A DNA stretch of 23,325 nucleotides. Origin: a virus (Duplodnaviria > Heunggongvirae > Uroviricota > Caudoviricetes). This document shows positions 8,785 to 10,388 of the stretch, piece after piece. Location: IMG/VR virus record IMGVR_UViG_2511231170_000001, one strand, 5' to 3'. The notes below the pieces were generated by a model. That model worked only from the letters and a program-made list of their open reading frames with translations. It was not told where the DNA came from and made no database searches. Position 1 is the stretch's first letter; each line of letters opens with the position of its first letter. Made by a program: the position numbers and the translations under genes.

Positions 8785-10196
8785 AACTGGCACCGAACTT
8801 AAAAAAACAGCCACACGACAAAATGACCGAAGTCATTATTTTTGCGGGTAGTGATGCCTGGGCGCACGCGAAACAGTGGCAGGAACAGGACGGGCGACTT
8901 GCTGGTGATAACGTCCCGCCTGTATGGCTGGGAGACAGCCAGCTTGACGAACTGGCAGACCTGAAAATTATCGACGATGGTCGCTATTGTGTCCGGCTGT
9001 ACAAGGCAGGCCACATCAAGCCGTCAAATATTAATGCTATCGGGCAAAAGCTGGCGGCGGCAGGTGTACGGGATGCGAATTATTACCCTGATGGAATGCA
9101 CAGCCAGAAGCTGGAGAACTGGCACGACTACCTGCAACGGATCCGCGAACAGGCAGAGCGCGGGGAAATACTTACTGACGAGCAATACAGCCAGCGAAAA
9201 ACCACGCTACCAATGAGCATTGGATCTGCAGGGTACGACACACAGCTTGATTATGTCGTTAAGGGCGTGATTCCGGCTAATTCATTGTGCAGCACATACG
9301 GCGCGAGCGGTTCCTATAAATCGTTCCTCGCGTGTTCCTGGGCGTGTCATGTTGCCACTGGCCGTCACTGGGGAGGCCGCAGGGTGGCGCATGGTTCGGT
9401 GATGTATGTTGTCGGTGAAGGTGGCATTGGTGTCCCCCGCCGTATCAAGGCATGGGAAATCGTTAATGATGAACGGGTGGAAAATCTGTACCTGGTAAAC
9501 CGCCCGATTTTTCCGGCAGTCCCGCTTGATGTTGATGAAATGGTCATCGCTTCCCGCCAGGTTGAACGGGAAACGGGTAAACCGGTACGCATGATTATTC
9601 TTGATACGCTGGCGCGTTGCTTTGGCGGTAATGATGAAAATGACGCGCGGGATATGGGGGCGTTTATCCGTGGATGTGACGAACTGAAACGCCGCACAGG
9701 GGCCACGGTGCTGGTGGTTCACCATTCCGGCAAGGATGAAACAAAGGGGGCGCGTGGTTCCAGTGCATTTCGTGCATCTCTGGACGCTGAATACCGTATT
9801 CGCCGTGAAGGTGCAGACAGTGAAGCCCTGGTTATCTCCTGCACAAAAATGAAGGACGCGGAGGAACTGAAAGAGGCCGCATACGATTTACGTGTGGTGG
9901 AGCTTTTTACCGACACTGACGGGGAGTTAATCACGTCGCTGGTTGTTGTGGATAAGCCGCGCCCACCCGTTGAACTGGAGCGCATCGAGGAAGCCGGGAA
10001 CAAGACGGAGAATCATGCCGCGCTATGGGGCTGTATCCGTTCACGCACACAGCGCGGAGATAAATGCACTATTCCGTTGTTGCGCGATGATATGAAAAAG
10101 CTGGGGTATGAGATGAAACACTTCCGGCGCTGGCTGTACAAGCTGGAAGGTGATGGCGTTATTGCTATTGACGGTGATGACGTGCGCCCACTGTAA
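8781..10196 (+). CDS. Replication initiator / RepA-like RecA-fold ATPase (pri-rep-like)
   Basis: Walker A GASGSYKS, Walker B ...MIILD, VVHHSGK motif; an iteron array follows immediately 3'. Confidence 0.8.
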   Translation: MKLAPNLKKQPHDKMTEVIIFAGSDAWAHAKQWQEQDGRLAGDNVPPVWLGDSQLDELADLKIIDDGRYCVRLYKAGHIKPSNINAIGQKLAAAGVRDANYYPDGMHSQKLENWHDYLQRIREQAERGEILTDEQYSQRKTTLPMSIGSAGYDTQLDYVVKGVIPANSLCSTYGASGSYKSFLACSWACHVATGRHWGGRRVAHGSVMYVVGEGGIGVPRRIKAWEIVNDERVENLYLVNRPIFPAVPLDVDEMVIASRQVERETGKPVRMIILDTLARCFGGNDENDARDMGAFIRGCDELKRRTGATVLVVHHSGKDETKGARGSSAFRASLDAEYRIRREGADSEALVISCTKMKDAEELKEAAYDLRVVELFTDTDGELITSLVVVDKPRPPVELERIEEAGNKTENHAALWGCIRSRTQRGDKCTIPLLRDDMKKLGYEMKHFRRWLYKLEGDGVIAIDGDDVRPL

Positions 10197-10388
10197 AAAG
10201 TGGGTAGTAAAAGTGGGGAGTGTGGGGAATTTAACAAAATTGAAACGTGATTCCCCACTTTCCCACCTGTATATACCCCAAAAAGTGGGGAATAAAAAAC
10301 ACATTGAAAAACATCACGTTAGAATCACAAAAAAAAGAAGTGGGGAGACGTTGGGTAATTTCAAAAAGTGGGTAGTAAAAGTGGGGAG
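10196..10388 (+). repeat. Putative replication origin: at least 7 iterons AAGTGGG(G/T)A, one inverted, with AT-rich spacers
   Basis: Copies near 10198, 10211, 10221, 10250 (inverted), 10283, 10339, 10367, 10380. Confidence 0.7.

Follow-up and report, generated by a model that had tools for sequence, protein, structure and literature searches.

What is the function of the short repeats that lie directly behind a replication gene in the Caudoviricetes record IMGVR_UViG_2511231170_000001 of IMG/VR, and which protein reads them? The stretch analysed here, hereafter the window, is 23,325 nucleotides (nt) long, and the repeats occupy its positions 10195-10397, just past the gene for a 471-amino-acid (aa) helicase-initiator, here called Rep. 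Comparison with related loci and published systems suggests that this region is a vegetative replication origin in which Rep acts on its own cognate iterons, and that it belongs to a 10.6-kb phage-inducible chromosomal island (PICI) resembling EcCICFT073; we put the probability of this reading at roughly 0.85.

The motif AAGTGGG(G/T)A, i.e., AAGTGGGKA, has nine exact matches in the window, seven of which fall within 10198-10387. Six of these seven are on the plus strand, starting at 10198, 10211, 10283, 10338, 10366 and 10379, and one is on the minus strand (10252-10260). In 100 dinucleotide-preserving shuffles of the window, the chance expectation for the motif over the whole window was 0.28, the largest count was 2, and no shuffle (0/100) reached nine. 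A relaxed scan added three degenerate copies at 10222-10228 (+), 10351-10357 (+) and 10261-10266 (-). The array begins at the TAA stop codon of rep (10194-10196), i.e., directly 3' of the initiator gene. The original prediction, which had been made from the letters of the DNA, claimed an iteron-type origin with at least seven copies of the motif (one of them inverted), AT-rich spacers and a position immediately 3' of a replication ATPase gene. These features are all present: seven exact copies (six direct, one inverted) and three degenerate ones within 10195-10390, two spacers of 76-78% A+T, and a start at the TAA stop of a gene with an AAA_25 (RepA-like) domain.

Read from left to right, the array opens with a left block of direct iterons (10195-10230, +) that holds two exact copies (10198-10206, 10211-10219) and a degenerate core (10222-10228). 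It is followed by a first AT-rich spacer (10229-10251; 78% A+T) between converging iterons and by the inverted iterons (10249-10270, -), one of them exact (10252-10260) and the other degenerate (GTGGGA, 10261-10266). Sequence comparison picked out a central CCTGTATATA element (10266-10275) between the inverted and the next direct iteron. The latter, the middle direct iteron (10280-10294, +; exact copy 10283-10291), pairs with the inverted copy in a perfect 12-nt inverted repeat (arms 10250-10261 and 10282-10293, 20 nt in between). The second AT-rich spacer (10292-10337; 76% A+T) contains A-tracts and is the proposed unwinding region, in line with the published layout of such origins. In the right block (10335-10397, +), the motif occurs exactly at 10338-10346, 10366-10374 and 10379-10387 and in degenerate form at 10351-10357, and AGTGAGGA lies at 10390-10397 (+). 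A repeat finder also reported a 26-nt exact direct repeat linking the two outer blocks (10195-10220 and 10363-10388, 168 bp apart). The 200 nt flanking the array have 47-49% A+T. Folding of the array as a single strand gave z = -2.35, a value that stems from the inverted iterons; it hints at, but does not establish, a hairpin that these iterons could form in single-stranded DNA. No DnaA box with at most one mismatch was found in 10196-10400. It should be noted that a perfect DnaA box (TTATCCACA) occurs inside the rep coding region, at 9947-9955 (-), 240 nt upstream of the array, and is probably a chance occurrence given that the window contains four perfect boxes.

The array is not peculiar to the window. 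A search for relatives of Rep gave ~2,900 homologs. We scanned one genome per species and compared 80 Enterobacterales loci encoding Rep homologs of 50-71% identity. The rep stop codon could be read in 79 of them, and 60 of these 79 had a conserved array, defined as three or more exact copies of a motif specific to the lineage within the 200 nt that follow the stop. The copies lie at near-fixed offsets from the stop codon, about +3 and +15 (direct), +55 (inverted), and +85, +145, +170 and +183 (direct), and all iteron classes keep a (C/A)TGTATA(T/C)A element in the gap that separates the inverted copy from the direct copy after it. The cores among the conserved loci vary with lineage and are GTGGGKA, GTGAGGA, GTGCGGC, and GTGGGGGA or GTGGGGGC. 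The AAGTGGGKA core of the window is also found in Kluyvera, Pantoea, Kosakonia and Superficieibacter, the AAGTGAGGA core in Xenorhabdus, the AAGTGCGGC core in Citrobacter, Leclercia, Kosakonia, Rosenbergiella and Phytobacter, the AAGTGGGGGA core in Serratia, Pectobacterium, Morganella and others, and the GTGGGGGC core in Pantoea dispersa (L051) and a metagenome-assembled genome of Enterobacterales (L044). Positions that stay fixed while the sequence changes are the hallmark of sites co-evolving with the protein that binds them.

Alignment of the Rep homologs points to that protein. Their C-termini have the pattern LWxxIRSR...CT...RDD(L/M)K...K-x-FxRWLxKLE..G.I...G, and one column of this alignment, residue 447 in window numbering, separates the iteron classes. 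For all non-duplicate loci, we compared residue 447 with the prevailing base at N in A(A/G)TG-N-G. His447 goes with G (9/9 loci), Asn447 with A (26/26), Ser447 with C (7/7), Gly447 with C (2/2) and Lys447 with G (31/33), so that residue 447 tracks the iteron base in 75 of the 77 tabulated loci, to which three further loci can be added. Two His447 proteins that were fetched later served as a test of prediction, and both have GTGGG iterons; a further Ser447 locus, on a circular element of Klebsiella, has base C in its AAGTGCGGCA iterons. The Asn-A and His/Lys-G pairings agree with common preferences of side chains for bases.

Especially close to the window is the E. coli locus L084, in which the last 75 residues of the Rep homolog P0030 are those of the window Rep except for H447N. 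The iterons of L084, at the same positions, read AAAGTGAGG (GTGAGG) versus AAAGTGGG(G/T) in the window, and the DNA after the stop codon is CTGTAAAAAGTGAGGCGTAAAAGTGAGGGG at the P0030 locus and CTGTAAAAAGTGGGTAGTAAAAGTGGGGAG in the window. The association between residue and base is not simple phylogeny. Overall, the proteins nearest to the window Rep are those of Xenorhabdus, which have Asn (identity of 75-78% over the helicase core, about 60% over the C-terminal part); the proteins that, like it, combine His447 with the GTGGG iteron reach an identity of only about 50% in the C-terminal part. Two neighbouring gene products were considered as iteron binders and rejected. The DUF4222 proteins are near-identical across different iteron classes, i.e., 97% identical between L084 (GTGAG) and L090 (GTGGG) and 91% identical between L091 (GTGAG) and EcCICFT073 (TGTCTACC). 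The 83-aa protein encoded downstream of the array is missing, together with ssb, from L084, L086 and L090, all of which keep the array; as the gene is absent from L084 and L090, which have iterons, it is not needed to explain the array. The near one-residue, one-base series at position 447 was not found described in the searchable literature. A full-text search for the iteron sequences gave, among the matches listed, only unrelated eukaryotic papers, and the PMC6092414 supplement contained no iteron or Rep accession text.

Rep itself (8781-10196, +; Pfam AAA_25, E=3.2e-44; annotated in RefSeq as 'helicase RepA family protein', WP_000761761.1) is composed of an N-domain (aa 1-135), a RecA-fold RepA-like AAA_25 helicase domain (aa 152-320) and a C-terminal winged helix (aa ~409-471). 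RSF1010 RepA is a homolog of the helicase core (1g8y; E=0.004, aa 153-326), and a fold search with the full-length model returned Rad51/RadA-like matches to the RecA-like core only, with no match informative on the N-terminal domain. The C-terminal domain is encoded by 10005-10193 (+), with codon 447 (CAC, His) at 10119-10121. An AlphaFold model of residues 392-471 is a helix-helix-helix-hairpin with a predicted local distance difference test score (pLDDT) of about 90, and in the full-length model the third, or recognition, helix spans residues 445-457, which places residue 447 in its first turn. The nearest solved folds in a Foldseek search were winged-helix DNA binders, i.e., IclR-type PcaR, MotA, MCM winged-helix domains, DtxR/IdeR, LexA and MarR-type repressors (TM-score 0.5-0.67, E about 0.1, which is expected for a domain of only 60 residues). 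The predicted fold and the co-variation suggest that Rep binds the iterons via this winged helix.

The N-domain of Rep has relatives of its own. Residues 1-135 (8781-9185) and the N-terminus of the EcCICFT073 Pri-Rep, a protein unrelated to Rep in its other parts, are 63% identical, and the same type of domain is also found on DUF5906/DUF927/primase-type proteins on plasmids. It matches no Pfam family and models confidently, with pLDDT 70-90, as an alpha/beta domain. In Rep relatives of ~680 aa, a primase Zn-ribbon and a Toprim domain replace the 135-aa N-domain. Candidate roles for the N-domain include interaction with helper or host, or priming.

From these comparisons we infer that binding, melting, self-loading and replication may all take place at the array. 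In the proposed sequence of events, a helper phage would activate the island and lead to its excision, and Rep encoded just upstream would bind the 9-13-bp iterons via its C-terminal winged helix, with residue 447, where the recognition helix starts, reading the base after GTG in AAAGTG-N-GG. Rep protomers on the opposed iteron sets would assemble as helicase rings, which could open the AT-rich spacers and self-load with no need of DnaA. The single-stranded DNA-binding protein (SSB) of the island would then coat the unwound strands, and replication would supply DNA for packaging.

Several points weigh against this reading. The co-variation indicates cognate recognition and says nothing of replication, and the same sites could serve autoregulation; furthermore, the lineages compared are related, so that independent switches at residue 447 must be fewer than loci. 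The full-length model of Rep is poor (mean pLDDT 64), and the Foldseek matches to the small C-terminal domain reach E-values of only about 0.1. No primase domain was recognisable in the 471-aa Rep by family and library searches. In EcCICFT073, the PICI replicon that was tested by experiment, the helicase is of an unrelated, D5-like type and the iterons (TGTCTACC) are unrelated as well, and only the N-terminal 131 aa are common to the two Reps. The lack of a recognisable primase domain also bears on the claim in the original prediction that the locus fits the pri-rep plus ori arrangement of inducible islands: the PICI context and the ori layout held up, while the term pri-rep is loose for a helicase-initiator of this kind.

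The first of these points leads to the alternative that survives best, namely that the iterons are Rep-binding sites with a chiefly regulatory role (autoregulation, a block to read-through, or 'handcuffing' in copy-number control) and that the true origin lies elsewhere. Co-variation proves cognate recognition only, and iterons of plasmids are generally known to double as control elements. The last iteron copies also overlap the ribosome-binding site of the next gene (10398-10649), so that Rep binding may have a secondary regulatory effect. However, neither a promoter-like nor a terminator-like site was detected in a scan of 9900-10700, no second iteron cluster was found in the island, and a regulatory role would be compatible with origin function. 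Moreover, the layout matches that of experimentally tested origins of PICIs and of Staphylococcus aureus pathogenicity islands (SaPIs), with opposed iteron sets and AT-rich DNA 3' of rep. In Gram-negative PICIs, the origin is described as the region immediately 3' of the initiator gene, where two iteron sets flank an AT-rich region, and the rep-ori segment of EcCICFT073 maintained a temperature-sensitive plasmid at the restrictive temperature while its delta-rep and delta-ori versions failed (Fillol-Salom et al., 2018, ISME J, PMC6092414). In SaPIs, Rep is a helicase that loads itself; its C-terminal winged helix binds 6-12 iterons that lie just past the rep gene, and the origin combines an AT-rich centre with iterons pointing both ways (PMC9371898). 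Given this published layout (PMC6092414, PMC9371898), the reading of the array as an origin amounts to applying the published rule for such elements, and we consider a chiefly regulatory array improbable.

A circular record in the comparative material is of interest in this context. L092 (CP018459.1, Klebsiella pneumoniae) was deposited as a 16,971-bp plasmid and contains int, an AlpA-like gene, a Rep homolog with Ser447, and capsid, head-tail adaptor and terminase genes. The Rep homolog is its only recognisable replication gene, among products most of which are unnamed, and is followed by AAGTGCGGCA iterons of the same architecture. By its gene content, L092 looks like an excised capsid-encoding PICI, which would be consistent with episomal replication of such elements without proving it.

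Far less probable is the possibility that the repeats are packaging-recognition sites, cosB- or pac-like, for a Nu1-type small terminase. It draws on the two exact copies of AAGTGGGKA outside the array, at 13711-13719 and 13794-13802, which are 83 bp apart and flank the start of the small terminase gene terS, and on a lambda-type cosN at 13580-13591. Against it, L084, L086 and L090 lack the Nu1-type terS and the capsid module and keep the array, whose sequence across loci follows Rep residue 447 and not the late module. L091, whose Rep is of the Asn/GTGAG type, retains the 13794 copy as GACAAGTGGGGAGTG within terS, and has no copy at the position equivalent to 13711. The former is explained by coding constraint, because the copy encodes F-D-K-W-G-V (K-W-G) of the helix-turn-helix of TerS in both; the 13711 copy of the window is separated by 5 nt from an in-frame ATG (13725) that follows it, close to where terS is annotated to start, and occupies the place expected for a ribosome-binding site. 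A role of the 13711 and 13794 copies as a second cis site like crr of phage P4, or as a terminase site, was rejected on the same grounds, i.e., the coding role of one copy, the place of the other just ahead of terS, and no tracking of the iteron class. The two copies are coincidental and not part of the array.

The cosN mentioned above is an exact lambda-type sequence (GGGCGGCGACCT) located 130 nt upstream of the Nu1-family terS, and the sequence around it resembles the text given for 'cos.2' of EcCICFT073 in the PMC6092414 supplement. EcCICFT073 was reported to have two cos sites (PMC6092414); the island in the window has only one cosN. As EcCICFT073 is without terS, the island in the window probably directs its own cos packaging differently.

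The idea that the region is a chance or decaying repeat without function, or the coding sequence of the 83-aa open reading frame (ORF) that spans it (10150-10401), deserves almost no credence, since the observed count was not attained in any of 100 shuffles, the copies keep their places from genus to genus with a sequence that changes in step with Rep, and the ORF is unannotated in RefSeq. This mechanically called ORF (+; GTG start) begins within the last part of rep, in a different frame, and reads through the iterons to give ...KKWVVKVGS...KKWVVKVGS.... RefSeq has no coding sequence there, and the changes in iteron sequence would alter its product, which argues against a conserved protein. 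The original prediction had called it spurious, and we agree: the ORF exists on paper.

The window is a piece of E. coli chromosome, with 100% identity to strain DA61218 and five others, and the rep-to-ssb stretch is matched in 1,891 of 5,426 complete E. coli genomes, 459 of which cover at least 80% of it. A 69-nt direct repeat (4495-4563 and 15111-15179), with identical last 26 nt (4538-4563 and 15154-15179: CGGTGTAGTTAATGGTGTAGTTAATT), provides the att-like repeats that bound the 10.6-kb element. The island sits inside the transposase gene of ISEc45/IS110, and this gene in turn interrupts an IS66 element, part of a CP4-like island beside tRNA-Asp. Within these boundaries the order is a tyrosine integrase gene (4585-5814), an AlpA-type helix-turn-helix gene (6182-6370), an Icd-like gene and several small ORFs, DUF4222 (8485-8784), rep, the array, the 83-aa gene directly downstream of it (10398-10649, +; phrog_1231, function unassigned), the SSB gene (10646-11068, +; Pfam SSB, E=4.9e-15), genes for a lambda-E-type major capsid protein and a D-type decoration protein, and the Nu1-family terS (13722-14264). 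The SSB is likely an accessory of the replication module. The features expected of a PICI that were found are thus the integrase, the alpA-type activator, att-like repeats 10.6 kb apart, cosN, a Nu1-type terS, and capsid and decoration genes, and the order is syntenic with that of EcCICFT073, the prototype Gram-negative PICI (located at NC_004431 1377930-1388654). On its gene content, the element is therefore classed as an EcCICFT073-like PICI, i.e., a phage satellite.

Two other features of the island were noticed. A 396-aa ORF (6423-7613, +) with a weak Ant-like stretch (aa 49-84) is unannotated in RefSeq and overlaps, on the opposite strand, an annotated YlcI/YnfO gene (7130-7435, -); gene callers disagree at the equivalent place, with 419 aa on the plus strand in L086 and 101 aa on the minus strand in L084. 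In addition, a 31-nt terminator-like hairpin with a T-run (GCCGGAG(C/A)AATCCGGCTTTTTTACGGGTCCT) is duplicated at 11085-11115 and 13525-13556, the first copy following ssb and the second following a 137-aa gene and preceding cosN.

As a finding, the origin is ordinary, a textbook-style PICI origin in one more island, and for annotation its value is that a spurious ORF can be removed and a replication module marked. Of wider interest is the possibility that this Rep family represents a second, non-homologous design of self-loading helicase-initiator with downstream iterons, in which an RSF1010-RepA-like (SF4-type) helicase is joined to a winged helix and position 447 supplies a near one-residue, one-base code for the choice of origin (His/Lys-G, Asn-A, Ser/Gly-C), with natural H447N switches re-targeting Rep from GTGGG to GTGAG; we regard this broader proposal as evenly balanced. 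If such a code holds, co-resident satellites could keep separate replicons, and a single substitution could reprogram origin specificity. The loci offer an unusually clean natural series of one recognition-helix residue versus one iteron base over about 80 loci, and make origin specificity and replicon incompatibility among phage satellites testable by a single point mutation.

Compared with known systems, the putative origin differs from the classical Rep_3-type origin, in which a WH1-WH2 initiator acts on 17-22-bp tandem iterons and DnaA boxes adjoin the AT-rich region, by its AAA_25 helicase, its iterons of 9-13 bp and the absence from 10196-10400 of any DnaA box with at most one mismatch. 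It resembles that of the IncQ plasmid RSF1010 in having a homologous helicase core and an iteron-based origin independent of DnaA boxes. RSF1010, however, divides the functions among the RepA helicase, the iteron binder RepC and the primase RepB', and has 20-bp iterons and the ssiA/ssiB hairpins, whereas in the window the helicase and the presumed iteron binder are one polypeptide; no homolog of RepC or RepB' was found among the main ORFs of the island by family and library searches or in the RefSeq annotation. The alpha protein of phage P4 is, as generally known, another case of a satellite replicon with one protein that serves as helicase and, by its C-terminus, as binder of short repeats at the origin. 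P4 alpha is a primase joined to a superfamily-3 helicase, and P4 requires a second, distant repeat cluster (crr); in contrast, the window helicase has a RecA fold, and the copies at 13711 and 13794, far from the array, do not go along with the iteron class.

Like SaPI1, SaPI5 and SaPIbov1 (PMC9371898), the island combines a helicase-initiator, a C-terminal winged helix (predicted in our case) and short iterons just past rep, and shares with SaPI origins the central AT-rich region and the oppositely pointing iterons. Unlike the SaPI Reps, which are superfamily-3 (AAA+) proteins of Gram-positive hosts, the window Rep has a RecA-fold, RSF1010-RepA-like core, and no sequence homology between the two was detected. 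The closest counterpart is EcCICFT073 of E. coli (Fillol-Salom et al., 2018, PMC6092414), an island of the same kind whose genes follow one another in the same order. Both have the ori directly 3' of rep, iterons in both orientations around AT-rich DNA, and then a small gene and ssb, and the first 131 aa of their Reps are 63% identical. The remainder of the EcCICFT073 Rep, in contrast, consists of D5_N/DUF5906/Pox_D5 domains and its iterons are TGTCTACC/GGTAGAYA, whereas the window has an AAA_25 RepA-like helicase with a winged helix and AAGTGGGKA iterons. The origin layout is thus already published; what is new here is that an origin of the PICI type is attached to a helicase-initiator of a superfamily other than that of EcCICFT073, and the comparison shows that PICIs swap whole helicase-plus-origin cassettes behind a common N-terminal domain.

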